Source of the DNA: Candidatus Delongbacteria bacterium
GTDB lineage: Bacteria; CAIWAD01
Direction: 5' to 3'
Assembly (NCBI GenBank): GCA_041675285.1
Contig: JBAYTZ010000014.1
Coordinates: 22,891 to 86,890 of the forward strand
DNA: 64,000 bases
Below, piece after piece: positions 14,499-33,562 of this stretch. The position numbers and the translations under genes were made by a program. The number at the start of each line of letters is the position of its first letter. The stretch's first letter is position 1. The notes under the pieces were generated by a model. That model ran no database searches. It was not told where the DNA came from and saw nothing but the letters and a program-made list of their open reading frames with translations.

Positions 14499-15269
14499 AT
14501 GGGCCGATTCGACGACATGAACAAGCGCCACGAGCAGCACACCCTGGAGAGTGGCCGCTTCCTCAAATTCGACGACGGAGACAAGCACCTGCTGGTCTTC
14601 CTGGGCTTCCCCCACATCCGCGAGGTGTACTGGGACGGCACCAACTACCACGACTGGAAAGACGGCTGCGGCAAGGAGAAAAGCCTGAAGACCTCGATGA
14701 ACGTGGCCATCATCGAGCTGGTTGGCGGCAGATACATCTTCAAGGCCCTCAAGGTCCTGGAGAACTCCAAGACGTTCTTCAAGCAGGTCAACAAGATGGA
14801 TGTCAAGTACGGCGTCGACAACGAGATCTTCGAAGTTGAGCGCACGGGCCAGAAGGCCAAGGACACCACCTACACGATCCTTCCTGAGGCCCCCATCAGT
14901 CCCGAGCTGCGCGCCCAGCTGGACGCTCTGGAACTCAACGACCTCACCAAGGATCGCGACGACGACGACCAGAAGGGCGGCAGTGGCGGCAGCACCACCA
15001 AGCAGCCCGATCCCCCGGCCATCATCACCCAGGACGAGGGAAACGCCATCATCGAGCGGCTCAAGGCCCTCAAGGCCGCGCTGGGCGACGCCCAGGGCGC
15101 GCAGATGATGGCCGATTTCCTGGCCAAGTTCGGCATCAAGCAGATCCGCCAGCTCCCAGCGGCCAGGCTCAAGGAAGCCCAGCAGTGGATCGCGGGAGAG
15201 GAGGAGAACCTGCGTCACGCCAAGAATGATGGCGGCGTGGGTGCGGCCGAGGCCGACCCCTTCTCCTGA
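14499..15269 (+). CDS. hypothetical protein, possibly an SSB-like ssDNA-binding protein (Gly-rich linker + acidic C-terminal tip ...EADPFS)
   Basis: Start MGRFDD with GGAGG RBS. GGSGGSTT linker. Terminal DPFS resembles SSB C-terminal tips (DIPF). Weak. Confidence 0.4.
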   Translation: MGRFDDMNKRHEQHTLESGRFLKFDDGDKHLLVFLGFPHIREVYWDGTNYHDWKDGCGKEKSLKTSMNVAIIELVGGRYIFKALKVLENSKTFFKQVNKMDVKYGVDNEIFEVERTGQKAKDTTYTILPEAPISPELRAQLDALELNDLTKDRDDDDQKGGSGGSTTKQPDPPAIITQDEGNAIIERLKALKAALGDAQGAQMMADFLAKFGIKQIRQLPAARLKEAQQWIAGEEENLRHAKNDGGVGAAEADPFS

Positions 15270-15348
15270 TCCCGTTCCCCAGGGCCCGGTCGACTTCCTC
15301 ACGTGCTTGTCGACCGGGCCTCACTTCCACCCCAGCAGAGAGCCAATC

Positions 15349-17367
15349 ATGCACCTTTCGGATTCCACTCCCTGGCCGGTGCTGCCAGAGGACCTGCTCA
15401 CCCTGCCCGGCGACCCGGAGATGCAGGAGCCCATTGTCACGGCTGAAGAGGTCTTCGGCCCTGGTGGCCTTCTGTCTCAGCGGCTGCCCGACTACCAACC
15501 CAGGGCCAGTCAACTCATCATGGCCCAGGAAGTGGAGCAGGCCCTAACGGATGGCCGGAGTCTGATGGTTGAAGCGCCGACAGGCACGGGAAAGAGCCTC
15601 GCCTATTCCGTGCCGGCCATCCAGCACGCCCTAATCACTGGGCAGCGGGTGCTCATCGCTACGGCCAACATCGCCCTGCAGGAGCAGCTCACCCAGAAAG
15701 ACCTGCCCTTCCTGCAGCGAGTGCTGCCCGGCCCCTTTCGATTCGCGCTCCTCAAGGGCCGAGGGAACTTTTTATGCAGCAGCCTCCTCCTGGAACAGCG
15801 GAGCATGCTCTTCGCTGGAGTCTCCGGCGAAGACCAGGACGAGTTCGACCGCGTTCTCGACTGGACGAATCGGACCAGCACGGGCGATGCAGGCGAGCTT
15901 CCCTTCAGAGTTAAGCCCCGGGTATGGCGCCACTTCGCCGTCGGTGATACAAGCGAGTGTGCCGGCTGCACGCTGAAGTGCTACCACAAGGCCGCCATGG
16001 TCGAGGCCGAGGATGCCCAGGTGGTGGTCTGCAACTACCACCTGCTCTTTGCCCACCTGAAGGTCCAGGCGGCCACGTGCGGCATGGCCGGCGTGCTGCC
16101 GACCTTTGACGCCCTCATCTGCGACGAGGCCCACGAGGTCCCGGACATCGGCAGCGACTTTGCCGGTGAAGAGATCGGCCGCTGGAGCTTCCGTGGTTTC
16201 AAACGCCACCTCTCACGCGGTGGGTTCGAGGCACTAGACCGCGCCGCCGATGGCCTGTCCAAGGCCATCAAACTGATGGCGTTCCGGCACGCTGCGGCTG
16301 GATCGAACCGCATCAAGCTCCCCGGTCTCATCGACGAGGAACCCATTCTGGAGGCCCTACGCCACGCCTGGCTGGAGCTGCGCGCCCTGCAGGCCCAGTA
16401 CGAGGCGGAAACCAAAGAGCACGCCCAACTGGAACGCCAGAAGGAGCAGTGTCGCCAGCTGGCCCAGCTGGTCCATCGCCTGATCTGGCAGGAGTTCTCG
16501 GATTGGGTCTACTGGGTGGAGCGCCAGGAATCTCACATTGGCGAGAGCTGGAAGCTCAAGGGCAAGCCGGTTTCCATCGCACCCTTCCTGCAACAGGCTC
16601 TCTTGCCCTGGGTTCCGTTGATCGCCACCAGCGCGACGCTGACCACCACCCATGAGGACTTCACCTTCATCCGCGAGCGCATCGGCCTGGACGCTGCAAC
16701 GCGTCAGGTCGTCTTGCCCAGCCCCTTTGACTTCAGCAGCGCGGCCCTCCTGGTGGTGCCTGAAGGGCTTCCTGAGCCCAACGATCCTGCCCACCGCGAC
16801 CGCGTGCAGGGTGAGCTCCACGAAGCCGTGCAGCAGAGCGGTGGCCGGGCCCTCCTGCTCTTCACGTCCAGCCAAGCGCTGAAGGCTGCTCACAGCCTGC
16901 TGGCCCCGGAGTTCGAACGCATGAACTACGCCTGCCACTGCCAAGGCGATGCCCCCTCCACTAAGCTCATCACCCGCTTCAAGGAGGACGTGTCCAGTGT
17001 CCTCTTTGCCACGCGGACTTTCTTCCAGGGCGTGGACGTACCCGGGGAGAGCCTGTCCCTCGTGGCCCTGGACCGCTTGCCCTTCCCCTCGCCAGCGGAC
17101 CCGGTGATGGACTACATCGCCGAGCACGACCCCAAGGGCTGGTTCTTCAAGCACAGCCTGCCCATCGCCCTGATCACCTGGAAGCAAATCTTCGGTCGCC
17201 TGATCCGCCGGCACGACGACCGCGGCGTGGTGCTGCTGCTGGATGGCCGGGTGGGCACGAAGAAGTACGGCAAACAGTTCTTGAAAGCCATCCCGGGCGG
17301 CATGTTGAGCCGCGAGGTGGCGGCCATTGGGTCCTTCCTGGCCGACCCGGAGGACCCTTTCGCATGA
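15349..17367 (+). CDS. DinG/XPD-family (Rad3-like) ATP-dependent DNA helicase with an Fe-S cysteine cluster
   Basis: Walker A MVEAPTGTGKSLAY, DEAH box LICDEAHE, Cys cluster SECAGCTLKCY between the motifs. Ends ...PEDPFA. Confidence 0.8.
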   Translation: MHLSDSTPWPVLPEDLLTLPGDPEMQEPIVTAEEVFGPGGLLSQRLPDYQPRASQLIMAQEVEQALTDGRSLMVEAPTGTGKSLAYSVPAIQHALITGQRVLIATANIALQEQLTQKDLPFLQRVLPGPFRFALLKGRGNFLCSSLLLEQRSMLFAGVSGEDQDEFDRVLDWTNRTSTGDAGELPFRVKPRVWRHFAVGDTSECAGCTLKCYHKAAMVEAEDAQVVVCNYHLLFAHLKVQAATCGMAGVLPTFDALICDEAHEVPDIGSDFAGEEIGRWSFRGFKRHLSRGGFEALDRAADGLSKAIKLMAFRHAAAGSNRIKLPGLIDEEPILEALRHAWLELRALQAQYEAETKEHAQLERQKEQCRQLAQLVHRLIWQEFSDWVYWVERQESHIGESWKLKGKPVSIAPFLQQALLPWVPLIATSATLTTTHEDFTFIRERIGLDAATRQVVLPSPFDFSSAALLVVPEGLPEPNDPAHRDRVQGELHEAVQQSGGRALLLFTSSQALKAAHSLLAPEFERMNYACHCQGDAPSTKLITRFKEDVSSVLFATRTFFQGVDVPGESLSLVALDRLPFPSPADPVMDYIAEHDPKGWFFKHSLPIALITWKQIFGRLIRRHDDRGVVLLLDGRVGTKKYGKQFLKAIPGGMLSREVAAIGSFLADPEDPFA

Positions 17368-19418
17368 GCGCGCCCATCCTGGTGGACAGCCTGATTCGGA
17401 TCCCACTGCGAGACCTTTCCCCACGCGAGCGGGAGATCCTGGAGAGGGCCCTGTCCTACCCCAACCCCGCCTACCAACAGGCCAAGGCCCGGGGAGTGCA
17501 AACCCCGCGCGAGAAGGTGGACGGCGTCTGGCGCGAGATCCCCAAGCGCCTGGACGGCTTCCTGCTGGACGGGCAGGGCCGCTGGTGCATGCCCCGTGGT
17601 GCAGTAGCACTCCTGCGCAAGCACCTTCCAGCCTGGCCGGGCACAGAGGATCGGCGCAGCCGAGCACCCTTGGCGCCCAGCACACTGCCCGCCATGCGTA
17701 TCGAACTACGCCCCTACCAGCTGGCCGCCAAGGAAGCCATGGTCACCCGAACCCAGGGCGTGGTGGTGATCCCCGCCGGCGGCGGAAAGACCGTCACGGC
17801 CCTGGCCGCCTTGGTGGAGATCGGGCAGCGCACGCTGGTTCTGGTCCACACACTAGACCTGAAGGAGCAGTGGGAAGAGGAGCTGGAGGAGCACCTGGGC
17901 GTGGCGCCCGGGAAGATCGCGCCGGTGCAAGTGGCCACGGTGCAGACCCTGGCCAAGATGCATGCGGACGCTCTGACCCGGTACCTGACCGGTTTCGGCT
18001 GCCTGATTCTTGACGAAGGCCACCACGCCCCGGCCAGCACATTCGACCGCGTGGTGGCGTCCTGCCCGGCTACCTGGCGCCTGGCACTGACGGCCACTCC
18101 CGACCGGGAAGACGGCCTGACACCCAAGCTCCTGCACACCTTCGGCCCCATCCTGCACGAGACCCGCCAAGAGGACCTGCTGGCCGCCGGCTACCTGGTG
18201 CCAGCCGTCATCCACGAGGTCCACACGAGCTTCACCTTCCCCTACCAGGGCGCCGAGGACTACCAGGCCTTGGCCGAAGCATTGGCCCGGGACGAGGAGC
18301 GCAGGCGGCTGGTGCTGGACACGCTGGAGGCCCTCTACCAGGACGAGGAGCGCGTGATTCTGGTGCTATCCACCCGCGTGGAGGACCACCTGGTCCCGCT
18401 CTTCGAAGCGGCCAAGGCCCGAGGCATCCAGGGCGAGCTCCTGGCCGGGAAGGTGAAGAAGGACGCCCGGCGGCTCATCCGGCGTGCTGTGCGTGAAGGC
18501 CATGTGCGCGTGCTCTTCGCCTCGACTGTCGCAGACGAGGGCCTCAACATTCCCGAGCTGAACACCCTGCTCCTGACCTTCCCCGCCAAGGCCGAAGGCC
18601 GAGTTGAGCAGCGCGTGGGCCGGGTGATGCGCGCGTCGCCAGGCAAGACCAAGGGCGATGTCTACGACTTCATCGACAGCGCCGTGACCCATGTGGCCAC
18701 GGACGCCAAGCCCTTCCTGCGCCAGTATGCCAAGCGTCGGGCCGCCTACAAGAAGCTCCGGGCCAGCATCGTGAGGGCCGCTCCTGCGGCCCAGGCCGCC
18801 AACAGCGCCCTTGATGCCGGGCTGCTGCATCCCGTGCTCGCCCCGGCGATCCTGAAGCCCCACGCGGGCCGACGGCTGGTGGTGGGCATGGATCCTTCCT
18901 TCACCCACTTCGCTCTGGTAGCCGTGGACGTCGACCTCTGGTGGCCCGTGGCCATGACCACGCTCACCACCGCGCCCAGCGACAAGAAGCTGGGCATCCG
19001 CAAGGCCGACGATGACGGGCGTCGGTTGGAGATCCTGGCACTGGGCATCCGCGACTTCCTGGCCCGATTCCGCCCGGACCTACTCTGCTGCGAAACCCCG
19101 TCCTCCGGCGCCCAAAGCGCCGCGGCCTTGAAGGGCCTGGCCTATGCCAAGGCCCTCCTGGTGACGGCCAAGGTCTACCACGAAACGCCCACCATCTGGC
19201 TCCTGCCCGGGGACATCAAAGAGCGGGTGGGCGGCGGCCTCATTGCCACCAAGCAGCGAGTGGCCCAGTCCGCCCAGGCCTGCCGCGCCAGGGACGGCAG
19301 GCCGTGGTCGGAGGCCGGCTGGGACGCCACCAAGGACAAGAGCGAGCACCAGTTCGACGCCGCGGCGGCCATCCTGGCCAGCGTGAACGAGGACCTGTTC
19401 CAGGCCGTGATTCGATAG
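17364..19418 (+). CDS. SF2 helicase (DEAD/DEAH, type III res-subunit-like) fused to a C-terminal RuvC-like Holliday-junction resolvase domain
   Basis: VVVIPAGGGKTVTALAA (motif I), LILDEGHHAP (motif II), VLFASTVADEGLNIPELN and RVGRVMR (motifs V/VI). C-terminal 170 aa align to RuvC: VVGMDPSF (D), LLCCETPSS (E), DAAAAILAS (DAxDA). Confidence 0.7.
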   Translation: MSAPILVDSLIRIPLRDLSPREREILERALSYPNPAYQQAKARGVQTPREKVDGVWREIPKRLDGFLLDGQGRWCMPRGAVALLRKHLPAWPGTEDRRSRAPLAPSTLPAMRIELRPYQLAAKEAMVTRTQGVVVIPAGGGKTVTALAALVEIGQRTLVLVHTLDLKEQWEEELEEHLGVAPGKIAPVQVATVQTLAKMHADALTRYLTGFGCLILDEGHHAPASTFDRVVASCPATWRLALTATPDREDGLTPKLLHTFGPILHETRQEDLLAAGYLVPAVIHEVHTSFTFPYQGAEDYQALAEALARDEERRRLVLDTLEALYQDEERVILVLSTRVEDHLVPLFEAAKARGIQGELLAGKVKKDARRLIRRAVREGHVRVLFASTVADEGLNIPELNTLLLTFPAKAEGRVEQRVGRVMRASPGKTKGDVYDFIDSAVTHVATDAKPFLRQYAKRRAAYKKLRASIVRAAPAAQAANSALDAGLLHPVLAPAILKPHAGRRLVVGMDPSFTHFALVAVDVDLWWPVAMTTLTTAPSDKKLGIRKADDDGRRLEILALGIRDFLARFRPDLLCCETPSSGAQSAAALKGLAYAKALLVTAKVYHETPTIWLLPGDIKERVGGGLIATKQRVAQSAQACRARDGRPWSEAGWDATKDKSEHQFDAAAAILASVNEDLFQAVIR

Positions 19419-19429
19419 GGAGACTGTCC

Positions 19430-22312
19430 GTGGGGTATCTGGATCTGGTGGAGCGCATCAAGCGCGAGTTGACGATGGACGAGCTGGTCCCGCACCACAC
19501 GGGACGGAAGCCCATCCGCTGCCCGCTCCCCGGCCACGAGGACAAGGACGGGTCCTTCCTGGTCTACCAGGAGACCAACTCCTGGTGGTGTCCCAGCCAT
19601 CCCCACACACGCTGCGGTGGCAGCCCCATCGACTACATCATGCTGGAGCAGCACCTCGACTTCAAGGGTGCCGTTAGGCATGCCGCCGCCCTCAAAGGCT
19701 GGGACCTTGCGCCGCCGTCCGAAGAGGATCGCATCGCAGAAGAGGCCCGCCACAAGCGTGAGGAGACACTCAGCGCCCTGGTGCGCTATGCCCATGGACA
19801 GCTCCTCGCCGACACGGATGTGGCCAAGGAGGCGCGCGAGTATCTGGCAGCCCGAGGCTTCCACGAGAAGCTGCTGGAATACCACCAGGTGGGTCTGCTG
19901 AGCTTGGAGAAGCTCTACCAGGTGCGTGGCACCCACCCCCTCCTGGCGGACTTCAACCAGGCGGATTTCGAAGAGGCCGGTTTGCGAGGGGCGACGGGCA
20001 GCCTCCTCTTCCGGGACACGCGCATCGCCTTCCCCTTGCTGATCCGCCAGCGCGCTGTGGGCATGACCTTTCGCGCCATTCCGGGCTCCAGCGACAAGCG
20101 GAAGTTCGTCCACCTGGCCGGCCAGCCGGCCGGCTTGTGGAACCAGGACGCGCTGTTCAACAAGGACCGAGAGGTGACCGTCGGCGAGGGCGTCCCGGAT
20201 GCCGCCACGCTGGCCGGGTGGGAGATCCCAGCGGTGGGCAACCTGGGCCTGGAGGTGGCCAAGAACGCCCACCTCTTTGCCCACCTACGCGTGGTCACTC
20301 TCGTCTGGGACAACGACAAGGCCGGGCGCAGCCGGGTGGTGAACGCGGGCCGGGCCATCCAGGCCGCCCTGCGCGACGGGGAGGTGCGGATCCTCCACAT
20401 GCCTGGCGAGAAGGACATCAACGACTGGGCGCGAGCCGGGGGAACCAAGGAGGAGTTCCTGACCCTTCTGTGTGGGGCCCCGGATCTCTTGACCTACCAG
20501 GTGCAGCTGCTGCCAGACGTGAAGGCCGGCGAGCGCATGACGCGCGATGCACAGGCCGCGCTGCATGAGCTCCTGGCCGACGTCAAGGGGCTAGACGAGA
20601 ACTTACAGGACGTCTACCTGAAGAGGATTGCAGCCCGGGTCGATTCCAAGCCGCTGACCCTGAAAGGCATGATCCGGGCACAGGGAAAGAAGACAGCCGG
20701 GTCTGGAGCCGACGTGGGTGACTCGACAACACCCACGCTGGTGGCCTCTCAGGCCCCTGCCCTGGGGGCCGTATTCAAGGACGAAATCCCCTACCGGGCA
20801 GCCCTTGGGTTCCAGTTCAACGAGGCCCCCACCGCCAACATCGGCGTCTGGCTCAGGCCGAAGGATGACGAGCCTCTCGCCCCTTTCCTCATCGAGTCAG
20901 TGATCCAGGACGGGAAACCGTCCATCTCCTTGGTCCCCTATGCGGCACGCAGCAGGAAGGCCAAGGGCAAGATCAGCTTCCCCAATGAAGACCTACCCCG
21001 CTGGACAAAGGGCGATGCGCCCTACAGCATGGAGAGCTTGCTGACCGCCCCCGAGGCCAACACGCCGAATGCCGCCCACGTCTTCACGAGGATGCGTAGC
21101 CTGATCAAGCGATTCATCTGGTACCCCGCCGACCACGAATACGACGTCGTGACCATCTGGATCATGATGACCTACTTCTTCCCCGTCTTTGGTCGCGTGG
21201 GCTATCTGCACTTCAACGGCGGGTCGGGATCAGGCAAGAGCCTCAGCCTTCGCTTCATCGAGGCCCTGGCCTTCAACGCACTCAAGACCGCCAACATCAG
21301 CGACGCAGCCCTCTACCGCATTGTCGACGGATCCCGCTCCACCCTCCTGATGGACGAGGCCGAGCGTCTGAGCTTTCCCAAGGCCGGCACGCTGGAGGCC
21401 ATCATCCGCTCCCTCTTTCTGGACTCCTATGCCGAGGGGGCGGTGGTCTATCGGATGAACATGGAGACCGAGCGCCCCGAGCCTTTTGATGCTTTCGGCC
21501 CCAAATGCATGGGCAGCATCAACAAGATCGACCCTGTGTTGAACAACCGTTGCATCACCATCCACTGCCTGCGAAAGGAAAAGGGCGTCCACCTCGCCCA
21601 CCATGCCCAGATGGCTGAGGAGTTTTCACGTCTAGCTTCGCAGCTCCGGGACATGATGCACTGCATGGTGCTGACCCGGTTCCACGATGTCAGGCGAATC
21701 TTCACGGTTGACTTGATGGGGGCCTACACCGAGATCGAGAACCGCGAGTACGAGATCTGGATTTCCCTGATCGCCATGGCCCGCCTGGTGGACCAGGACG
21801 CGGAGTGGGATGAGACGCAGTCCCTGACGGACATCATCCTGAAAGCCCAGCACAGCAAAGAAGTCGAGCGGGAGGAGGAGGCCCGCAGAGAAAGCGTCGA
21901 CATCCTCATCCTGCAGACGCTGCTGAACATCATCACCGGCGATGACCAGGACACGTACGAGGTGCGCGGCGACGCCTGGAAGTACGTAAGCCACAAGCTC
22001 GCCGAGGGCATTCATTCCGAGCTCAACCAGGATGGCACGTGGCCCTTTGAGAAGCCGCTCACAAGCAACCGCCTGACCAACCTGCTGAAAACCCAGCACG
22101 TCATCGAGGAGGCCGATGTCAGCCGGCCCTTCATAGGCGGCAAGCGCGTGCGAGCCCTCAAGATCCGCCACGATAACCTTCGCAAGGCGCTGCAGCGCAT
22201 GCACGGCCTGAGCGCTGAAGACGAGGCTGCGCTTCCTACCGCCACCGAAGACCAAGCAACCCCGCCCCACCCCATGCCAACCCAAACCAAGCAGGACGAC
22301 CTGCCCTTTTGA
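19430..22312 (+). CDS. DNA primase (CHC2 zinc finger + TOPRIM) with a C-terminal P-loop (primase-helicase/D5-like) domain
   Basis: CPLPGHEDKDGSFLVY...WWCPSH zinc finger. TOPRIM EVTVGEGVPDA ... VWDNDKAGRS. Walker A HFNGGSGSGKS. Start GTG 19430 with GGGAGA RBS directly after the upstream stop. Confidence 0.8.
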   Translation: MGYLDLVERIKRELTMDELVPHHTGRKPIRCPLPGHEDKDGSFLVYQETNSWWCPSHPHTRCGGSPIDYIMLEQHLDFKGAVRHAAALKGWDLAPPSEEDRIAEEARHKREETLSALVRYAHGQLLADTDVAKEAREYLAARGFHEKLLEYHQVGLLSLEKLYQVRGTHPLLADFNQADFEEAGLRGATGSLLFRDTRIAFPLLIRQRAVGMTFRAIPGSSDKRKFVHLAGQPAGLWNQDALFNKDREVTVGEGVPDAATLAGWEIPAVGNLGLEVAKNAHLFAHLRVVTLVWDNDKAGRSRVVNAGRAIQAALRDGEVRILHMPGEKDINDWARAGGTKEEFLTLLCGAPDLLTYQVQLLPDVKAGERMTRDAQAALHELLADVKGLDENLQDVYLKRIAARVDSKPLTLKGMIRAQGKKTAGSGADVGDSTTPTLVASQAPALGAVFKDEIPYRAALGFQFNEAPTANIGVWLRPKDDEPLAPFLIESVIQDGKPSISLVPYAARSRKAKGKISFPNEDLPRWTKGDAPYSMESLLTAPEANTPNAAHVFTRMRSLIKRFIWYPADHEYDVVTIWIMMTYFFPVFGRVGYLHFNGGSGSGKSLSLRFIEALAFNALKTANISDAALYRIVDGSRSTLLMDEAERLSFPKAGTLEAIIRSLFLDSYAEGAVVYRMNMETERPEPFDAFGPKCMGSINKIDPVLNNRCITIHCLRKEKGVHLAHHAQMAEEFSRLASQLRDMMHCMVLTRFHDVRRIFTVDLMGAYTEIENREYEIWISLIAMARLVDQDAEWDETQSLTDIILKAQHSKEVEREEEARRESVDILILQTLLNIITGDDQDTYEVRGDAWKYVSHKLAEGIHSELNQDGTWPFEKPLTSNRLTNLLKTQHVIEEADVSRPFIGGKRVRALKIRHDNLRKALQRMHGLSAEDEAALPTATEDQATPPHPMPTQTKQDDLPF

Positions 22313-22323
22313 GAGGATCCATC

Positions 22324-23688
22324 ATGGCTGAGAAGAAACCCCACCAGCTCGCCGACAGCTACCGGCTCATCGGGCTGTCAGCCGAGAACTTCCTGCGGCT
22401 GAAGGCTGTGCGCATCGCCTTCGACCCGAAGGCCAACGCGGCCGAGCTCTCCGGCGAGAACGGCCAGGGCAAGTCCAGTGTCATCAAAGCCATCTGGACG
22501 GCGCTGGGTGGCGCCAAGGTGCTGGAGGACGAGCGCGTGCCGGTCCATGAGGATGCGGACAAGGCCAGCATCACCCTGGACCTGGCGCCGGCCGATGATG
22601 CCCGTGCCGGCAGCCCGCGGCGGATCCGCATTACGCGGACTATCAGCGCCGACGGTGGCTGGGGCCTCAAGATCTGGACCCCGGACAAGGGCAGCTTTCC
22701 CAGCCCCCAAGCCATCCTGGACACCTTCTTCCACACCCTGTGCTTCGACCCCAGCGAGTTCGTGCGCATGGACCAGAAGAAGCGCAACAAGGTCATGATC
22801 GACCTGGCCGGCGTGGGCGACCGCATCACCCCGCTGAAGGTGAAGCGGCAGGGCATCTACGACGAGCGCACGGGGATCAACCGCGACCTGAAGAACGCCC
22901 AGGCGCGCCTGGACGAGATGGAGCCACCGGATCTGGACGTCCCCGCCGAGGTCAGCCTGACCGAGCTGAATCGCCAGATCGATGAAGCCCGTCGGAAGGA
23001 GGAAGCCAATGAGCATGTGCGACGCGAGCTGCAGGGCCTCTACGACGCGCACGCCGAGGCCAAGCAGCTGGTGGCCGACCTGGAGGCCCGGCTTACCACA
23101 GCGCGCGACCGGGTGGAGGAGTTGGTGGCGCTGGGCCAGGAGAAGAAGAAGTCCGTGCTGGCGCTGGTGGACCCAGGCCTGCAGGCCCTGCGCGACAAAC
23201 TGCAGACGGCCGAGACCGACAACGAGCAGGCCCGCACCGCACGCAAGTACGCCGAGGAGACGACCGAAGTCGAGCGCCTGCAGGGCAGGAGCGAAGAGCT
23301 CACGAGCCGGATCGACGCCGTGAATGACGAGATCGCCCAGGTGCTGCTTTCGGCCACGTTCCCCATCCCCGACCTGGCCATCACCGAAGAGGGCGACGTG
23401 GTGTACCGCGGGAAGCTATTTGAGCAGGCGTCCGACGCCGAGCGCCTGGAGGTGTCCCTGGCCATGGGCGCGGCCATGAACCCGCGTCTGCGCTTCCTGG
23501 CCCTGCGCGAGGCATCTATGATGACCGAACGGACGCGGGACCGCGTGAAGGCCTGGGCGGCCGAGCACGACGTCCTGGTCCTCTTTGAGCTGGCCACCAG
23601 CCAGCACATCGGGATCCACATCGAGGATGGCGAGGTGGCGGGCCAGGCTGCAGAAGGCGAGCAGCAGGAGGAAAGCCATGCGGCCTGA
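22324..23688 (+). CDS. RecF/RecN/SbcC-like (SMC-head) AAA ATPase
   Basis: Walker A GENGQGKSSVIKAI, long coiled-coil middle, C-terminal LRFLALREASMMTERTRDRVKAWAAEHDVLVLFE (signature / Walker B-like). Confidence 0.6.
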   Translation: MAEKKPHQLADSYRLIGLSAENFLRLKAVRIAFDPKANAAELSGENGQGKSSVIKAIWTALGGAKVLEDERVPVHEDADKASITLDLAPADDARAGSPRRIRITRTISADGGWGLKIWTPDKGSFPSPQAILDTFFHTLCFDPSEFVRMDQKKRNKVMIDLAGVGDRITPLKVKRQGIYDERTGINRDLKNAQARLDEMEPPDLDVPAEVSLTELNRQIDEARRKEEANEHVRRELQGLYDAHAEAKQLVADLEARLTTARDRVEELVALGQEKKKSVLALVDPGLQALRDKLQTAETDNEQARTARKYAEETTEVERLQGRSEELTSRIDAVNDEIAQVLLSATFPIPDLAITEEGDVVYRGKLFEQASDAERLEVSLAMGAAMNPRLRFLALREASMMTERTRDRVKAWAAEHDVLVLFELATSQHIGIHIEDGEVAGQAAEGEQQEESHAA

Positions 23689-25705: not shown

Positions 25706-26326
25706 ATGCGCCGAGGCAAGAATGACATCGAGGGCCAGGTGGTTCCACTGAATCAGGTGACCACCCCTACCACGGGCAAGGACCGCAAGGGCGGTCCCAC
25801 CGACATCGATTGCAGGGCCTATGACCGGCTGATCCACGAGGTGCAGCATCTGGAGGAGCTCACAGGCTGCGCCGGCTGGGGCCGCTTCTTCGGTGGGCTC
25901 TTGCGCGAGGCCGACGAGGCTCGCACCCAGCTGGAGTTCGCCGAGAAGCCCCGCGACGTAATCAAGCTGCAGGCCACCATCGCCCTGGTGAAAAGCCAGC
26001 TCAAGAAGCTGCACCAGCCGGTGGAGGACTTAAGCGCCATGCGCACCAAGTGGCCACTGTTCACGGGCGAGATGCCCTGGCGCGCGGACTTCGATGAGCC
26101 CACCGGTCGCGTGACGCTGAACTGGGCTGGGCAGGGCCCCGCGCCAGAGAGTTATCACCCCATCACAGATCCCGAGGACGGTGAGGACGCGCCCGCAGGG
26201 GACCAGCCCGCGGAGCCGGCCGCCCTACCCAGTCGGCCCTGCCTCGACGAGGACGACCCGGACGAGGAAGAGGACCTGGACACCACCGGCCCCGGTCCCG
26301 AGCCAGACGACCCCTTCGGGAACTGA
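25706..26326 (+). CDS. hypothetical protein (acidic C-terminal tail ending DDPFGN)
   Basis: 206 aa. Confidence 0.4.
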   Translation: MRRGKNDIEGQVVPLNQVTTPTTGKDRKGGPTDIDCRAYDRLIHEVQHLEELTGCAGWGRFFGGLLREADEARTQLEFAEKPRDVIKLQATIALVKSQLKKLHQPVEDLSAMRTKWPLFTGEMPWRADFDEPTGRVTLNWAGQGPAPESYHPITDPEDGEDAPAGDQPAEPAALPSRPCLDEDDPDEEEDLDTTGPGPEPDDPFGN

Positions 26327-26329
26327 CCC

Positions 26330-26677
26330 ATGACCACCCAGGACATCGTCACCCAGCTGCGCACCCTCCATGGCTACACCGACCTCGACGCCAAGCGCGC
26401 CGTGCGTGACACGCTGGACGTGCTGCGCCACATGCTGGACGAGCTGGACGCGGGCGAGGGCTTGACGCTTCCCGGGATTGGCCGCTGGCTGTGCCGGGTG
26501 AAGGCCAGGCCCCATGGCGCGCATGGACTGGAGATCGTCTGGAACAACAGCCGGCAGATCAGCGAGGGGATGGCAGCGCGCACCCTGCCCGCGGATGACC
26601 CCAGGGTGGTCAAGGCGCTGAAGAAGAAGAATGGGCCCTGGCGCCCGTGGGGCCAGGACTGGAGCCCGGGAGAATGA
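26330..26677 (+). CDS. possible HU/IHF-like DNA-binding protein
   Basis: GEGLTLPGIGRWLCRVKARPHG parallels the HU arm (G.V.L.GFG.F.VR.R.AR). Weak. Confidence 0.35.
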   Translation: MTTQDIVTQLRTLHGYTDLDAKRAVRDTLDVLRHMLDELDAGEGLTLPGIGRWLCRVKARPHGAHGLEIVWNNSRQISEGMAARTLPADDPRVVKALKKKNGPWRPWGQDWSPGE

Positions 26678-27108
26678 GCATGCACCGGCACCCAGCGCCC
26701 CTCAGCCCCACCGCCGCCGAGCACCTGGCCCTGATCGCCGACGCCCTGCACGTCCCACGCGACACGCCTGGGCATGAATTGGTCCAGCTGGTTTCCGTGC
26801 GCTGCAGGCCCATGGACAGGCAGCACCTGGACCGGCTGGTCACGGGAAGCCTCAAGAGCGCCATTCACGCCCATGGCCCAATCACCCACGAAGGCATCTG
26901 CAGCACGGCCAGACGCATGTCCGGCCAGATCCACGCAGTCCTTTGCGCCCAACACATGGGCCTGGACGACCCCGGGCAGGAGCTGCCAAGCGGGCCCGCA
27001 GCCATGCCGAACCCCCCAGAGGATGCGCCGCCCTACAGCCCGACTTGGTTGTCGGCAACGGCCAGCTCCATCAACACGCCACCCCACAACGAGAGGACCA
27101 CACCATGA
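26674..27108 (+). CDS. hypothetical protein
   Basis: ATGA-coupled to neighbours. Confidence 0.3.
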   Translation: MSMHRHPAPLSPTAAEHLALIADALHVPRDTPGHELVQLVSVRCRPMDRQHLDRLVTGSLKSAIHAHGPITHEGICSTARRMSGQIHAVLCAQHMGLDDPGQELPSGPAAMPNPPEDAPPYSPTWLSATASSINTPPHNERTTP

Positions 27109-28526
27109 GTGTTGAGCCCGTTTCCCAGGAGATGGCCACCCAGGCCGCCGGCGCCTGGCTGGCGCGCTTGCCCGAATCTCAAGCCGCCGGTCGGGCAGGC
27201 GTCACCGTCTTGGAGACGATGGATCTGGACGACGACCACCCAGGCTTCCACGTCGTTTCCAGCGGCATCACCACCGTCCTTGTCGCTGGCGACCTGCAGG
27301 CCCAACCGATCCTGGGCTGGGCGGATCATGGCGACCTGCAGGGCCTGGGCGAAGACATCCCGGAAGGCCTGCGCGAGCTTCTCGCCGCCTGGGGCCAGCA
27401 GATCCTCATCACCCGGCAGGCACCGCCGGAGCGCGCTGGCGGAGACAACCCCAACCGCGCCAAATGGGAGCACCTCCTGGACACAAGTGGGCGCGCCCAG
27501 GAGGAAGAGCAAGTCAAGGTGATCCCGCCGCTCCTGACCGCGCGCTGGGGCCAGGGCGCAGGCTGGAACGCCCACTGTCCCATCGATGCGGCCGGCCCCG
27601 CGGGGCGCGCCTATGCGGGCTGCGTGGCCACGGCCATGGGCCAGGTGCTGCATCACCATCACCACCCTTGGCGGGGACGAAACATCCAGTCCTACGAGCA
27701 CGACAAGTACGGCGAAATCAGCTTGGATTTTCTTGAGGAGACGCCGGCCTGGAAGGCGCTGGCCGACCAGGGTGCCACAGACGCTGCAGCGCGCCTGCTC
27801 TTCATGGCCGGCGTTGCCGCGCGCATGAACTACGGCTACCGGAGTTCCACGGCCAGCTCCAGCAACATCCCCGTCGCCTTGCGCGGCTTCCTGCGCTTCG
27901 CCGACACCACCCGTCTGGTGTGGCGGGCGAGCACGCCGCCGGAGATTTGGGAGGAGCTGATTCGGGAAGAGCTTGATGCCGGTCGCCCCATCATCCACCG
28001 CGGCCAAGGGGCCCAGGGTGGGCACGCCTTCAACCTGGACGGCTGGCGGTCGGACGGGTTCAAGCACGTGAACTTCGGCTGGAACGGGTCCTACAACGGC
28101 TGGTACACCTTGGATGACATCACCCCGGGCAACTGGAGCTTCACCAGCACGCAGGGCATGGTGGTGGGCATCCAGCCGCGCGAGGAGGAGCTGCTTGCCC
28201 CACCCGATGGTGAGCATGGCGTGCCGTCCGGCGGCATCACGCTGCGCTGGCGCCCGCAGCCAGGCATGGCGCGCGTGGAGTTGGATGTCTCCACCAACGC
28301 CCAGTTCACACCTGTCATCCGCCGGGCCGTACTCCCGGGCGGCATCACCAAACACTTTCTGACCGGCCTTGCGCCAAGCGCGCGCCACTTCTGGCGTCTC
28401 ACCTGGGTAGACAAGGTGGGCAACCGCCGCACCACGCAGGCGTGCAGTTTCGTCACCGGATCCCAGCCTACCACCGGCAGACCCGGTCAGCACTCCACAA
28501 CCATCAAGCCGGAGATCCTGCCATGA
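27105..28526 (+). CDS. peptidase C10 (streptopain/SpeB-like cysteine protease) with a propeptide and a C-terminal beta-rich (Ig/FN3-like) domain
   Basis: Catalytic Cys block YAGCVATAMGQVLHHH (SpeB GCVATATAQIMKYH). His block GGHAFNLDGWRSDGFKHVNFGWNG (SpeB [24 protein letters not shown]). RBS GAGAGGA before ATG 27105. Confidence 0.85.
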   Translation: MSVEPVSQEMATQAAGAWLARLPESQAAGRAGVTVLETMDLDDDHPGFHVVSSGITTVLVAGDLQAQPILGWADHGDLQGLGEDIPEGLRELLAAWGQQILITRQAPPERAGGDNPNRAKWEHLLDTSGRAQEEEQVKVIPPLLTARWGQGAGWNAHCPIDAAGPAGRAYAGCVATAMGQVLHHHHHPWRGRNIQSYEHDKYGEISLDFLEETPAWKALADQGATDAAARLLFMAGVAARMNYGYRSSTASSSNIPVALRGFLRFADTTRLVWRASTPPEIWEELIREELDAGRPIIHRGQGAQGGHAFNLDGWRSDGFKHVNFGWNGSYNGWYTLDDITPGNWSFTSTQGMVVGIQPREEELLAPPDGEHGVPSGGITLRWRPQPGMARVELDVSTNAQFTPVIRRAVLPGGITKHFLTGLAPSARHFWRLTWVDKVGNRRTTQACSFVTGSQPTTGRPGQHSTTIKPEILP

Positions 28527-28912
28527 AGCACGCCATCCGCACCGCTCTGCTCCTCTTGGTCCTGGTCGGAACCAGCGCCGCCTGGGACGCGCCCGAGCTC
28601 ATCACGCCCATGCTGGGCCAGCGCCACGTCCCCACTCAGGGCACGCTCTTCGCATGGGTGCCCAAGGCCGGTTACCACACCTGGATCTTGCAGGTGGCCG
28701 ACAACCAGGGCCTGCTCCACCCCTTTGTGGATGTGGAGACCCATGCCACCAACATGCACTGCCCGACGCCCTTGCCCGCTGCCGCCCACCTTTACTGGCG
28801 GGTCCTCTACGTCAACGACGAGGGTCAGGTCTACTGGTCCGGCACGGGGCACTTCTGGACCACGCCGGTCATGCCTCGACACATCCCGGCCACCAGCCTG
28901 AGCATGGACTGA
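28523..28912 (+). CDS. secreted hypothetical protein (signal peptide); possible partner or inhibitor of the C10 protease
   Basis: MKHAIRTALLLLVLVGTSAAWDAPE signal peptide. ATGA overlap with the protease stop. Confidence 0.45.
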   Translation: MKHAIRTALLLLVLVGTSAAWDAPELITPMLGQRHVPTQGTLFAWVPKAGYHTWILQVADNQGLLHPFVDVETHATNMHCPTPLPAAAHLYWRVLYVNDEGQVYWSGTGHFWTTPVMPRHIPATSLSMD

Positions 28913-28996
28913 CCGCCGCGCCGTGAATCGGCTCATCTGGGGCAGCCGGCCCTGTCCCAACCACCCCTCATCCTGACCCAGCACGAAAGGACCCCA

Positions 28997-29590
28997 ATGC
29001 TCCACCATTTCATGATCGACATCGAGACCTGGGACACGGCGCCCACGGCCGTCATCCGCGCCATCGCCATCGTGGGTTTCAACCTGAACGGCACACTCAA
29101 TGAGATGACACTCGTCGACTGCCGGCGAACCGTGGATGAGCAGATCCAGGCCGGTCGGACCACCAGCGCCGAAACCGTGGACTGGTGGGCCAAGCAGTCG
29201 TTCGGGCTGGGCGACCTGCTGGTGGACACGCGCCATCACGCCACTGACACGGGGATCTACCAGACGGAGATCGTCGAGCCGCGCTGCTTGGCTGACGTGG
29301 TGAGAAACGTCGAGGACGGCCTGATGGCCGAGGACGGCGAAATCCGCGTCTGGAGCCGTGGCCACTTCGACATCACCATCCTGGAGAACCTGCTGCAGGC
29401 CCAAGGCGATCCGGTCCCCTGGCGCTACAGCCAGGTGCGCGATGTGCGCACCCTTGACGAGATCATCCCACCCGACATGGCCCAGTGGGAGCATCACCCG
29501 CTCTCCGATTGTCTGGCGCAAATCCGGCAAGTGTGCATGGCAATGCGCATGGCCAAGGCCGCCGCCAGCGAAGCGTTCAACACCCATTGA
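28997..29590 (+). CDS. DEDDh-type 3'-5' exonuclease
   Basis: MIDIETWDT (D-x-E) and H-x4-D (HHPLSD) motifs. Confidence 0.55.
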   Translation: MLHHFMIDIETWDTAPTAVIRAIAIVGFNLNGTLNEMTLVDCRRTVDEQIQAGRTTSAETVDWWAKQSFGLGDLLVDTRHHATDTGIYQTEIVEPRCLADVVRNVEDGLMAEDGEIRVWSRGHFDITILENLLQAQGDPVPWRYSQVRDVRTLDEIIPPDMAQWEHHPLSDCLAQIRQVCMAMRMAKAAASEAFNTH

Positions 29591-29604
29591 AAACCGGAGC
29601 GACC

Positions 29605-30036
29605 ATGAGCACCACCCAACCCATCAAAGACATCTGCGCGGCCCACAGCGCGGGGCGCGAACAAGGCCTCGTCATCGAGGAGGCGGACACCCTGGCAGCC
29701 AAGGAAATGGCAAGCCTCATATACGTCAACGACGAACTCCGGCGAGCCTATGTCCTGGGGATCGAATGGGGCCAGGCTGTCCGCCAGCGGGCCATGGCAC
29801 GCGACGCGGCCAATCCCCTCAAGGCGCTGGTGGACGCGCGGAAGGCGCTGGCCGATGCAGACATCTCCATCCTCTGCCCGGGCGAAGGTGATGTCGAGCT
29901 CGCCAGCGTGGCCGATTCCATCACCCGGATGGCCACGGCACTCCGCAAGGCCCACCAAGAGATTGCAGCAGCCCACCAGGTCCTGGATGCCGCCGGCGTG
30001 CCGCATGTCATGCCCTGCCAGGCCAGCCAGAACTGA
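29605..30036 (+). CDS. hypothetical protein
   Basis: ATG in frame within track ORF 29485..30036. Confidence 0.4.
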   Translation: MSTTQPIKDICAAHSAGREQGLVIEEADTLAAKEMASLIYVNDELRRAYVLGIEWGQAVRQRAMARDAANPLKALVDARKALADADISILCPGEGDVELASVADSITRMATALRKAHQEIAAAHQVLDAAGVPHVMPCQASQN

Positions 30037-30050
30037 AAGGGCGGACAAGT

Positions 30051-30272
30051 ATGCGATTCGACATCCCCTACTGGTTGAACGACGAACAGCGTGACACGCT
30101 GCTGGAGAATTGGGATCGCTACCAGGCCATCGTGGTCGCACTCTTAAGCCCGGCCACATCAAGATCAACCCCCATCGATGATGCCGTGCGCTTGACGCTC
30201 TCCGAGGCGGCATGGAAGAAGGATCTGCTGCAGCGGCAGGCTGCGCGCACCACTTCAGGCGGGACTTCATGA
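30051..30272 (+). CDS. hypothetical protein
   Basis: 73 aa. Confidence 0.3.
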   Translation: MRFDIPYWLNDEQRDTLLENWDRYQAIVVALLSPATSRSTPIDDAVRLTLSEAAWKKDLLQRQAARTTSGGTS

Positions 30273-30739
30273 GCGACACCAAGGCCCAGATGGCCAGGCT
30301 CAACGAGCGCATGGACAAGGCTGCCGAGTTCATGCGCGAGTTCAAGATTGAAGTCCTGGAACGCATTGAGCGCCTGGAACAGCGCGTCACAACGATCGAA
30401 CAGGCCCTGGGCGACCACCTTCGCGAGCACCAAGCCCGGGACGCGGCCAGCCCGCCGCCCAGGCCGCGGGCGCCGCGCGTCGTGCGCACGCCTGGCGGGA
30501 AGATCCGGGATCCCCTACTGGCAGCACTCAGCGCGCGGAAGGCGGACATCGGGCTCAACACCAGGCAGTTGGCCGGGCTGCTGGGCTACCCCCGGAACAC
30601 AGTTTCGAATTGGCTGAATCGAGTCAATGCGCCGACTCACCCGGGTGACCGCGCGCGCATCCACGAGTGGGTCAGCCTGGCAGAAAACGCGCCGGCGCGT
30701 TTGATCCGCGAGTGGCGAGAGGAGACAGACCGTGGATGA
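30269..30739 (+). CDS. hypothetical coiled-coil protein with a C-terminal HTH-like segment
   Basis: RQLAGLLGYPRNTVSNWLNR. ATGA coupling. Confidence 0.4.
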   Translation: MSDTKAQMARLNERMDKAAEFMREFKIEVLERIERLEQRVTTIEQALGDHLREHQARDAASPPPRPRAPRVVRTPGGKIRDPLLAALSARKADIGLNTRQLAGLLGYPRNTVSNWLNRVNAPTHPGDRARIHEWVSLAENAPARLIREWREETDRG

Positions 30740-31276
30740 ACCATGGACCCGAATTCTGGACGTGCCCGATCGCAAACCCGGGCAGTCGGGCAGAAATGGA
30801 GATTCCGTGATACAAACTGACAGGAGTATTTTGCCCGACTGCCCGAGTTTGCCTTCGGGCAGTTCGAATACAGGCAACCAACGTGTAGCTTTGAAAAAGC
30901 CCGAAGTCCTGCCCAAAGTACATCCCATGGGGGTGTCACCCCCCCCTGAGAAATCAAAAAACCTACCCGCGGGACTCCGCCCGCACGAACTCAGTTTTTT
31001 TCTCCTTTTAAGAAGTAAATGCCAGTGCGGGCAGAGTCCCGCGGGAAGTCGCTTTTTCGTCTTACAGACCCAAGGTGACACCCCTGGGAAAACAGGTTTG
31101 GGCGGTCTTTGGTCTAACACCTCAGGGTGGGAGATTCGTCACTCCCAAGGCGAACGCCGCAATTCCGCCCTAACCGCCGGTCTTCCTCCTGTCCCCCCAT
31201 GCCGCCGCCGCGCGGCCGCAGGCGCGCCCCACCACGCCGCGAACGCCATCAGCCGAACCCACGGAAGGATCCTCCC
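30740..31276. promoter_or_regulatory. 0.5-kb structured non-coding region: several hairpins including a 21-bp-stem hairpin (30966-30986 / 31025-31045, 38-nt loop with T7 run) flanked by inverted GGGGTGTCACCCC / GGTGACACCCC motifs
   Basis: Inverted repeats read directly from the sequence. No credible ORF. Lies between the regulatory/replication genes and the nuclease gene. Confidence 0.5.
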
Positions 31277-32665
31277 ATGACGACGCCACACGCGGCGCCT
31301 CTGACGCCCTGCTGCCCTAACCTGCCCCTCCTGGACCCCAAGCTCCCCGATGGCTTCCAGGTCCACAACGAGCACTGGTCCTTCTCCCGGCTGGACACCT
31401 ACGCCAGGTGCCCCCTCGCCTACAAGGCCAGGTACCTCGACCCCCAGATCTACGGCGCCGACTACGTCAAGCCCTTGCCAGACCCCAGTAGCCCGGCCGT
31501 CCTCGGCACCCTCTGCCACCGGACGCTGGAACTCGCCGGACTGACTCTCAAGCAAGCACGCCACATGGGCAGGCTCTTCCGCCAACAGAAGCTCATCCTC
31601 GACTGCCTCCACCAGGCCTTCCAAGAGAAGCCCGAAAAAGGCGACGTCATCCACACCGGCCAGGTCCTGGCCGATGCCCAGGCCATCCTTGTTGAGTACC
31701 TGAAGAACGGCGACTTCTACGCCGACCAGATCCTCGGCCTGGAGTGGCCCTTTGACTTCGTCATCGAAGACCCCCTGGGAGACATCCGCATCATCGGCTT
31801 CATCGACCGCCTGGAAATGACGCCCGAAGGCGTAGTGCGCCTCAAGGATTACAAGACCAACCGCATGCTCTACACCAAGGACGAGCTCAGGCAGTCCCTC
31901 CAGGCCTCCATCTACGAGCTGGCCGTCCGCGACAGCGAAGCCCTGGCCGTCACACCCGACACGCCCGTCGACTTCGAGTTCGTCCTCTTGCGCCATGGCC
32001 TGTCCCAGCGAACCACGCGCTCGGAGAGCGACCTGCAGCTGGCCGTCCACCAGATCACCTGCCTCGTCCACCGCTGCGAAGGGTCGCGCACCTTTCCCGC
32101 TCAGCTGAACAAATACTGCGCCTACTGCGACCACAAGGTCCAGTGCCCCTTTTGGCGGGAAGTGGTCGCACGCGGCCTGCCCCAGGCCCACGTCGGCGCC
32201 AGCGATCTGTCCGCCATCGCCGTCGAATACGAACGCATGACCGACGCCGCCAAGGTCCTCTACGCCCGGAAGGAGGAGATGGCCGACCTCATGAAGATCC
32301 ACCTCATCGGAAGCGAGCAGATCGAGACGCCCACACACCTCTTCCGCACCAGCGCCAACAATGAGACCACCTTCAGCGATCCCTTCCGCGTCGCCAAGCT
32401 CCTCGCCCAGGTCTACCACCGGCCCGTCAGTCAGGTCCTGCGACGCATCGGCCGCATCTCCAAGACTGAGTTCGACGCCGTCATGAAAGACGCCGAGCAG
32501 CGCGTGACCGCCACGGCCCTTGCCGAACTGAAGACGGAGCTGGAACCGCTCATCGAGACCATGCCCAACCCCAAACTCCAGGCCTACAAGCGCCCCGTGG
32601 AGGCGGAAGGGCAGCCGGCCAAACGGGTGAAGCGGCCCCAGGTGAAGCGCAGGCTGAAGGTTTGA
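31277..32665 (+). CDS. PD-(D/E)xK nuclease, Cas4/RecB-family, with C-terminal Fe-S cysteine cluster
   Basis: HWSFSRLDTYARCPLAYKARYLD (N-terminal Cys), IIGFIDRLE...VRLKDYKT (D...ExK), CAYCDHKVQCPF (three C-terminal Cys). RBS GGAAGGA. Confidence 0.7.
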   Translation: MTTPHAAPLTPCCPNLPLLDPKLPDGFQVHNEHWSFSRLDTYARCPLAYKARYLDPQIYGADYVKPLPDPSSPAVLGTLCHRTLELAGLTLKQARHMGRLFRQQKLILDCLHQAFQEKPEKGDVIHTGQVLADAQAILVEYLKNGDFYADQILGLEWPFDFVIEDPLGDIRIIGFIDRLEMTPEGVVRLKDYKTNRMLYTKDELRQSLQASIYELAVRDSEALAVTPDTPVDFEFVLLRHGLSQRTTRSESDLQLAVHQITCLVHRCEGSRTFPAQLNKYCAYCDHKVQCPFWREVVARGLPQAHVGASDLSAIAVEYERMTDAAKVLYARKEEMADLMKIHLIGSEQIETPTHLFRTSANNETTFSDPFRVAKLLAQVYHRPVSQVLRRIGRISKTEFDAVMKDAEQRVTATALAELKTELEPLIETMPNPKLQAYKRPVEAEGQPAKRVKRPQVKRRLKV

Positions 32666-32848
32666 ACGCGGTCTGAGGGTACTGACAATTGAACCTGACA
32701 AGACCTCAAGTTGATGTCAGATCAAGAAAATTGAGCGGAAAATGAAGCTAGAAACGGTTGGGGATACGCAGCGTGAGCCCGCCGGCCCTGGATGCCCCGG
32801 CCGGCCTGTCTGGAGCTGGGGCAGCTTGACTTCAACGCGGAGGCCAGC

Positions 32849-33562
32849 ATGAAGCCGGAACCGGGGAAAGTGGACACGGGAACCCGCGGGGGATTCGGCC
32901 GGTCCCCGCGCTGCAACCGGGAGCTGGAGGACGGCCGGCTTTGCCGCCAGCCGGTCCCGATGGCGGGCATGCGCTGCTACCTGCACCAAGCCAAGCCGGA
33001 GGACCTGGTCCCGGCGCCGGACTTGCCCGCGGGCGTGGTTGTCCCGTCCCTCTTCCAGGACCCGGCTTGGCAGTTGTCCCTGGTCGGGTTCGTGGCTGAC
33101 ATTTACCGCGACTACGCCGGGCTCAATAAAGGCGCGGACCTGCGCCAGATCCTGGCGGCCGGCGCGGCCCACGTGCGGCTGACCTACGGCATGGAGGCTC
33201 TGGAGCCGAAGGACATTGAGCTGCTGTCCAGGGTGGTGGACAGGCACCTGCGCAACCTGCGGGCGACGCCCAAGGAACAGGAGGCCGGCCGGGCCGGGAA
33301 GGACGGCAAGGGTGCCCTGGGTGCCTTGGCTGCCGGCGTCCAGGTGGGCGCCTTGCTGGAACGCGTCCGTGGGGCGCTGTCGCCGGCCCAGCGACGCGCG
33401 CTGGCCGCGGGCCGGCCCATCGCCGGCGCGGAGGTCCTGCAGGCAAACGCGCCGGCTGTGGCCCCGGACGAGGCTGAGGTCTTGGACGACGAGGACGACC
33501 TTGGCGTGCCCAGACCCATCGGCCTGGCGGGCGAGGACCTTCCGCCGGACCCGTTTGCCTGA
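32849..33562 (+). CDS. hypothetical protein with an N-terminal C/H-rich segment (ends ...PPDPFA)
   Basis: Plausible composition, whereas the overlapping minus-strand ORF is R/G/Q-rich. Start uncertain (32792 or 32849). Confidence 0.4.
   Translation: MKPEPGKVDTGTRGGFGRSPRCNRELEDGRLCRQPVPMAGMRCYLHQAKPEDLVPAPDLPAGVVVPSLFQDPAWQLSLVGFVADIYRDYAGLNKGADLRQILAAGAAHVRLTYGMEALEPKDIELLSRVVDRHLRNLRATPKEQEAGRAGKDGKGALGALAAGVQVGALLERVRGALSPAQRRALAAGRPIAGAEVLQANAPAVAPDEAEVLDDEDDLGVPRPIGLAGEDLPPDPFA

Follow-up and report, generated by a model that had tools for sequence, protein, structure and literature searches.

In the 64,000-nucleotide stretch of DNA analysed here (the window; contig JBAYTZ010000014.1), which belongs to a metagenome-assembled genome (MAG) labelled 'Candidatus Delongbacteria bacterium' (locus tags WC326_...), four unrelated proteins encoded in the early region of a prophage end in the same short acidic tip, Asp-Pro-Phe followed by one or two residues (DPFx). 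Our analysis suggests that DPFx, with its free carboxyl end, is a short linear docking motif, that it is the tip of the family to which this prophage's own SSB, or single-stranded DNA-binding protein, belongs, and that the SSB shares it with a DinG-like helicase and two further proteins, named C and D, through one receptor. We give this reading a probability of about 0.55. The proteins and tips in question are the following, in window coordinates.

14499-15269, + strand: protein A, predicted phage-type SSB of 256 residues, with an OB fold at residues ~20-150, an acidic/Gly linker at ~154-172, a three-helix C-terminal domain (CTD) at ~176-244 and a flexible tail EADPFS
15024-15230, + strand: the three-helix CTD, residues 176-244, first candidate receptor for the tips
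15255-15266, + strand: DPFS tip of the SSB
15349-17367, + strand: DinG/XPD-like SF2 helicase (Pfam Helicase_C_2 8.5e-33, DEAD, ResIII; phrog_2488), ending PEDPFA; its start was set by comparison with relatives, the longest open reading frame (ORF) beginning at 15226
17353-17364, + strand: DPFA tip of the DinG-like helicase
25706-26326, + strand: protein C, 206 residues, function unknown, with a conserved N-terminal domain of ~140 residues, a variable linker rich in P, A, D and E, and a tail PDDPFGN
26309-26323, + strand: DPFGN tip of protein C
32849-33562, + strand: protein D, 237 residues, with an N-terminal Cys/His zinc-ribbon-like motif, a helical core, a disordered acidic region of ~45 residues and a tail PPDPFA
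33548-33559, + strand: DPFA tip of protein D

The four ORFs had been reported to end in acidic DPF tips in an initial annotation of this DNA, and all four endings are found exactly there. In fact, among the 3029 six-frame stop-to-stop ORFs of the window, DPF followed by at most three residues closes just these four, all of them long, coding-like and on the + strand. The composition-based expectation is 0.02 such proteins among 46 plausible proteins, against 4 observed (P(>=4) = 7e-9). As a post-hoc control the last 30 residues of each protein were shuffled and any tripeptide recurring in the last six residues of at least four proteins was sought, and such a recurrence appeared in 39 of 20000 shuffles. 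The initial annotation had named a tail frequency no higher than codon bias predicts as grounds for giving the tag up; the census and the expectation contradict it, and so do the codons themselves, since those for D, P and F vary synonymously among related elements (GAC/GAT, CCC/CCT/CCA/CCG, TTC/TTT). The DNA 3' of the stop codons of the tail genes is unrelated among the compared sequences. Because the codons differ synonymously and the DNA after the stops is unrelated, the conserved object is the peptide rather than a by-product of codon bias, and a repeat at the DNA level does not account for the endings being shared. Chance, which has only the small number of proteins to recommend it, is practically negligible as an explanation, considering that the census matches real genes only and that the tails are kept in homologues despite the synonymous changes. 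The portal protein (51311-52846) also has an internal VDPFG near its N-terminus, at residue 35, but probably by chance; internal DPF occurs 5 times in the 46 proteins, where about 2 are expected.

Whether homologues keep the tail had been put forward as a check, and they do so for each of the four proteins. For A, C and D the homologues were drawn from a collection of 5.8 billion proteins. As many as 23 of the 24 homologues of A (45-87% identity) end in DPF[SADNE] and the remaining one in DAFA, with D253 and F255 invariant and P254 nearly so. All 20 homologues of C end in DPF[GAD] plus up to two residues from N, D, E and A, mostly G and then D, N or E; in the 17 that were aligned, D202, P203 and F204 are the sole invariant residues after an indel-rich linker. 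For D, 31 of 34 homologues end in DPFx and two in DDLFD, while P0076 and P0078 bear two copies of DPF, the second one upstream. The DinG-like helicase ends in EDPF[AE] or DDPFS in 6/6 related elements (L001, L002, L003, L005, L006, L019), its tail being only ~8 residues long. These related elements (L001-L009 and L019) were taken from the same sample and from other samples, and a six-frame census of them revealed no further protein family with DPFx tails. The linkers before the tips have a low predicted local distance difference test score (pLDDT) in A and D, and are of variable length and rich in P, A, D and E in C and D; in the model of D, the last seven residues have a mean pLDDT of 65 versus 36-46 in the blocks before them. 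For C there was no match in Pfam, PHROG or PDB, and sequence and profile searches of PDB, Pfam and PHROGs gave no family for D. As a side observation, protein D of a distant relative of the element (L009) ends in DDLDDLFD.

Protein A is, judging from its predicted structure, an OB-fold SSB of the phage type. The AlphaFold2 model (pLDDT 76) consists of an N-terminal beta1-beta2-beta3-alpha-beta4-beta5 domain, a disordered acidic/Gly linker, a three-helix CTD modelled with confidence and a floppy tail, and the alpha helix between strands 3 and 4 of the OB-fold core is a feature of the gp32/gp2.5 type. No sequence match to A was found in Pfam, PHROG or PDB; in tblastn searches of cultured phages, A and the family member P0085 had no match and the member P0118 had weak N-terminal matches only. 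A weak sequence relation exists between the family of A and the annotated SSB of Clostridium phage phiCTP1 (gp48). The profile of A and its homologues matches 767 clusters (50% identity) in 1.84 billion representatives, and 40 diverse members gave 0 matches in Pfam; by these sequence comparisons the SSB family seems to be large and undescribed in domain databases.

It is in this family that the DPFx tip has its home. Among the best 150 representatives, 99 end in DPFx, with the consensus E-V/I-D-P-F-A, six belong to the canonical class [DE][LIVMP]PF, and more IPF/LPF endings lie within 13 that were counted as xPF; NPFE, DPYA and DPLS are also seen as endings in the family. The member P0185 carries both tip types in tandem (ADPFADSDDIPF). 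Together with the occurrence of both types within one family, this tandem implies that DPFx and the canonical tip may be functionally equivalent. They are built differently: in 171/171 tabulated DPF tails one to three residues come after the Phe, most often A, S or G, to which an acidic residue may be added, and the tails of the related elements and of the metagenomic loci agree with this, whereas in the IPF/LPF class the Phe is terminal. The residues before DPF are mostly G, A and E in A, and acidic in C, D and the DinG-like helicase. We thus regard DPFx as an SSB tip which appears evolutionarily exchangeable with the bacterial one but differs from it in construction. The likeness to the SSB tip DDDIPF, from which the initial annotation started, holds for a Pro-Phe at the C-terminus after a disordered linker and fails at the final position, the Phe never being the last residue in DPFx. 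A metagenome scan yielded 80 loci with members of the family, where nearly all SSBs end in E[VI]DPFA, and a search of IMG/VR with a DNA pattern for EVDPFA-stop gave five loci with little context. The literature on DPF-type tips of phage SSBs yielded nothing relevant beyond a paper on an LPF degradation signal in Streptococcus mutans, which is discussed below.

The proteins beside the SSB behave otherwise. In most of the long metagenomic SSB loci no ORF besides the SSB has the tip. The neighbouring DinG-like protein is tail-less in L022, L034, L037 and L042, ends in ADPFDPTLF in L035, in GDIPF in L060, in [VI]DPLS in L067, L068 and L084, and in AVDPFS in L051; moreover, the tip is missing from the DinG-like homologue of Bacillus phage HSE3. 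Close relatives of the helicase of our element were not found in genome or viral contigs with a single-protein query. The locus L051 is unrelated to our element, and there the SSB and the DinG-like helicase, as well as two small proteins without homology to C or D, all end in [ED]DPF[AST] or VDPFS. Because the SSBs are nearly all tipped, their neighbours are mostly not, and L051 presents a parallel case, the tip seems to be ancestral on the SSB, and at least two lineages seem to have copied it, each on its own, onto further proteins. A portable short linear motif would behave in this way if its reader were an ever-present partner. The candidates for this partner which would be always or nearly always present are the SSB itself, a tail-less SF2 helicase and host proteins.

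The element carries two tip classes, and the second sits on a different protein.

17364-19418, + strand: SF2 helicase/RuvC-like fusion without a tail (Pfam ResIII, Helicase_C; phrog_16, phrog_159)
19430-22312, + strand: DnaG-like primase (zinc ribbon and Toprim)/P-loop fusion, with weak Pfam and clear PHROG primase matches, ending KQDDLPF
22295-22309, + strand: DDLPF tip of the bacterial SSB type, with the Phe terminal

The KQDDLPF of the primase/P-loop protein is a fifth tail, overlooked in the initial annotation. It is kept in every related element, as QDDLPF, DDEQLPF, DAEDLPF or a tandem GDIPFDDVPF (L001, L002, L003, L005, L019), the tandem being a duplication in L019; in L002 (14915-17835), where the primase gene is split in two, the second, P-loop half retains the tip. 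This C-terminal half has a Walker A motif GGSGSGKS at residue 639 (counted in the ORF from 19304) and a Walker B-like LLMDEAE, gave no Pfam or PDB match, and is possibly an undescribed helicase family. By analogy, the simplest reading of DDLPF is mimicry of the host SSB in order to engage host factors, for example the clamp loader. The analogues are T7 gp4, whose tail binds the polymerase where the SSB tail does too (PMC12339929), and the DinG-family helicase YoaA of E. coli with its chi-binding C-terminus (PMC8378479). Pfam scans found no DNA polymerase domain in any scanned protein of the window, the element running on beyond it, and no clamp gene was found in the window either; because a polymerase gene is not found there, the primase tip probably engages the host readers of the SSB tip. 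The tail-less SF2/RuvC helicase is the most constant neighbour of DPFA-tipped SSBs, present in ~17/22 long metagenomic SSB loci. Its own ending, EDLF(QAVIR), was considered as a tail and rejected, as distant homologues do not share it and it probably belongs to the fold. A canonical SSB-type tip is also seen in L009 (6228-6974), where an HTH_3 repressor-like protein, a putative transcription regulator, ends in ...QIDEIPF.

The mechanism that we favour is as follows. The DPFx tip, characteristic of the SSB family, would have been placed in this prophage lineage also on the DinG-like helicase, C and D, and the four tipped proteins would plug into one receptor, and thereby be located at SSB-coated single-stranded DNA or compete with the SSB there, while the DDLPF of the primase/P-loop protein would instead engage host proteins that read the host SSB tip. 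The common docking or recruitment tag of the initial annotation thus stands in so far as the tip is shared, beyond chance, conserved and family-wide on the SSB; docking, the use of a single receptor and the nature of that receptor are what we infer from this. Within the docking explanation, our tentative preference for the receptor is the three-helix CTD of the SSB itself. The tail of one SSB would enter the CTD of its neighbour, so that SSB filaments would form cooperatively, and the helicase, C and D would dock in that socket too. The CTD is a lead because it is conserved family-wide (motifs RLKxLPR and FLxxFG), because it weakly resembles, by predicted structure, the CTD of Redβ and λ Orf, both known binders of SSB tails, and because it co-occurs with DPFx: among OB-containing members with the CTD there are 157 DPFx-like versus 5 canonical tips, and among those without it 3 versus 7 (Fisher 1e-7). 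The Redβ CTD binds the C-terminal peptide of SSB with a Kd of ~10 µM (PMC6393309). A bolder version, which we offer as a speculation with the odds clearly against it, is that the SSB is plug (DPFx) and socket (CTD) at once and forms a head-to-tail polymer on single-stranded DNA, that any protein acquiring DPFx joins or caps the filament, and that the primase/helicase meanwhile attracts the host polymerase by copying the tip of the host SSB.

Short C-terminal tips wire the replisomes of bacteria and phages, and that of bacterial SSB is a target for antibacterial drugs as well. DPFx would be a second type of tip, systematically different in that its Phe is not terminal, and it is the mark of a family of 767 clusters absent from domain databases. 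Its copying to unrelated proteins, in no fewer than two independent lineages, would be a natural experiment in the growth of an interaction network through a four-residue motif. If the plug and socket were true, it would invert the bacterial SSB interactome, where the SSB gives the tail and the partners own the pockets. The separation of phage-type and host-type tips on different proteins leads to a testable prediction as to which components contact each other and which the host. Furthermore, DPFx may serve as a handle for annotation, by which C and D could be assigned to the replication and recombination machinery from their tails.

Several other explanations have to be weighed. The strongest is that DPFx, like DDLPF, docks in the pockets of host enzymes for the SSB C-terminus (the chi subunit of the clamp loader, PriA, RecO, RecQ, exonucleases), either recruiting or titrating them. 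This agrees with the finding of no polymerase gene in the window, by which host Pol III must be engaged, and with the fact that DPFA and DD(I/L)PF replace each other within the SSB family and meet in P0185; moreover, the DinG-family helicase YoaA of E. coli binds chi through its C-terminal 18 residues (PMC8378479). On the other side, the primase of the element has a perfect canonical tip of its own, suggesting that there are two different receptors, and DPFA stays constant in SSBs whose metagenomes and GC contents differ greatly, a constancy more in line with a co-inherited phage receptor than with pockets specific to each host. Canonical recognition of the SSB tip relies on the carboxylate of the terminal Phe, and a terminal Phe is what none of the 171 DPF tails has. 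On balance we consider this explanation rather unlikely. Slightly less probable is a receptor in another protein of the element, mainly the tail-less SF2/RuvC helicase or the primase/P-loop protein. Analogues exist, since SF2 helicases and DnaG of bacteria bind the SSB tip and Dda of T4 binds gp32. However, no SF2 helicase lies within reach in some long SSB loci (L022, L060, L067), and a pocket has neither structural nor sequence support.

A common receptor would be superfluous if each acidic tail were a DNA mimic acting in cis to auto-inhibit its own protein, DPF being convergent. The acidic tails of T7 gp2.5 and E. coli SSB do fold back on their own DNA-binding groove, and all tail bearers here plausibly bind DNA. 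The gp2.5 tail is discussed in PMC12339929. Yet D-P-F is invariant in four unrelated folds and recurs on the unrelated proteins in L051, which would hardly be expected unless they had a shared reader, and the flanks are not uniformly acidic, being G/A-rich before the tip in A; we judge this explanation to be very improbable. Still less credible are tips that act as degradation tags for a host or element protease and time the turnover of early proteins. There is a precedent in the SsbA of S. mutans, whose C-terminal LPF is a ClpXP-dependent degron in some strains, and the element encodes a C10 cysteine peptidase; but in the same study a GFP-DPF variant was not recognised and the effect, specific to strains, was absent from E. 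coli (PMC5143411). A constitutive tag on an abundant SSB across a whole family is also implausible, and the C10 peptidase bears a propeptide-inhibitor domain of the kind usual in secreted enzymes. DPFx was finally considered as a clamp-binding motif and this was rejected, Gln not being enriched at positions -3/-2 (E, P, A and G are found there) and Pro occupying position 4.

The setting of these genes in the window is listed below.

5169-6353: integrase, left border of the prophage
~13.4-33.6 kb, + strand: early region of the prophage
31127-32665, + strand: PD-(D/E)XK nuclease (Pfam PDDEXK_1 1.9e-28), which recurs near the SSB in metagenomic loci
48751-49824, minus strand: second integrase
49.7-57.3 kb: terminase, portal and MuF-like protein, following the second integrase

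The GC content is ~72% in host DNA and ~65% in the prophage, which runs from the early region through a cargo island to the second integrase. The early region begins with an ECF-like sigma factor, a 95-residue protein, the SSB and the DinG/XPD-like helicase, continues with the SF2 helicase/RuvC-like fusion, the DnaG-like primase/P-loop fusion and a RecF/SMC-like ATPase (22309-23688), then has several proteins of unknown function including C, an HU-like protein, the C10 peptidase and a DEDD-type exonuclease, and ends with the PD-(D/E)XK nuclease and D. Protein D is always 3' of this nuclease, which may act as an exonuclease together with the SSB in recombination. The order ECF-like sigma factor, small ORF, SSB (13426-15269) persists far out in the SSB family (P0132, L015); in P0132 a product of 511 residues has sigma region 4 and then the SSB, through either a fusion or a merged gene call. 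The C10 cysteine peptidase (26943-28526), streptopain-like and with an I69 inhibitor propeptide, lies inside the early region and is kept in a related element (L008 1-1046), an unusual member of a replication module. No fewer than four diverged copies of this type of element are present on separate contigs of the same MAG or sample (66-100% identity at the SSB; WC326_12870, _08465, _02105, _01630).

Two further regions of the prophage are variable or foreign in character. Just inside the left integrase (6800-12700) there is a low-GC island (42-50% versus ~65%) with a DUF5677 protein and several ORFs without family matches, probably a separately acquired cargo. Between gene D and the large terminase (33563-49824) lies a variable cargo slot, always ended by a minus-strand XerC-like integrase (also in L007, L008 and L009), which looks like a hotspot of defence genes with its own recombinase. 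In the window it contains an SNF2/PLD helicase, RhuM, a Sel1-repeat protein, a Type ISP restriction enzyme and an AAA_21 ATPase; in the relatives it contains an MmeI-type enzyme (L007), a DNA methylase with DUF4928 (L008), or AbiJ/Abi_C with RelE/MqsA (L009). A second pair of alike C-termini is found here, as the Type ISP enzyme (39113-42715) ends in ...GDLFGQNAES and the next ORF (42583-43455) in ...GNLFGEEN, both closing with [DN]LFG and a short extension; the MmeI enzyme that occupies this slot in L007 does not end in this way.

Among known systems, the C-terminus of bacterial SSB (...DDD(I/L)PF-COOH) is the closest in form, being likewise an acidic and aromatic Pro-Phe tip that closes the disordered linker of an OB-fold SSB; both tip types interchange within the SSB family, and the primase of the element has the canonical form. 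In contrast, DPFx has a non-terminal Phe and no aliphatic residue before the Pro, and it sits on several non-SSB proteins, and the logic is perhaps the reverse, the SSB being both plug and socket; a terminal Phe with a free alpha-carboxylate is present in the DDLPF of the primase only. Clamp-binding tails (bacterial QL[SD]LF; the C-termini of T4 gp43, gp33 and gp55) offer another comparison, in which several unrelated proteins share a hydrophobic/acidic C-terminal peptide that docks on a hub. The use of one short C-terminal peptide by several unrelated proteins is common to both, and two homologues of D end in DDLFD, whereas DPFx lacks the Gln at position 1 and has Pro where Leu or Met is needed.

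In T7, as here, the SSB and the helicase/primase proteins of one phage share acidic, aromatic C-terminal tails (in our case DPFx on A and the DinG-like helicase, DDLPF on the primase), and the tails of T7 gp4 and gp2.5 use the same patch of the polymerase (PMC12339929). The receptor there is the phage DNA polymerase, while a polymerase gene is not found in our window, and the present case has two classes of tips and four or more clients, the function of two of these being unknown. A T7-like shared pattern is also seen in the cultured phage phiCTP1 (L016, NC_014457.1), which encodes its own DNA polymerase and beta clamp: its annotated SSB, a weak family member without the CTD, ends in ...GADVF and its replicative helicase in ...GTEVF. 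As for the tail of the SSB itself, the mechanism that we favour is matched by ICP8 of HSV-1, where an FNF motif of the disordered C-terminal tail docks on the next ICP8 and gives cooperative filaments (PMC12409425); the protein and the motif are unrelated, and the FNF tag is known on no other proteins. Altogether, the DPFx tails are best classed as a variant of the docking principle of the SSB tail and the T7 tails, on an undescribed family of SSBs.

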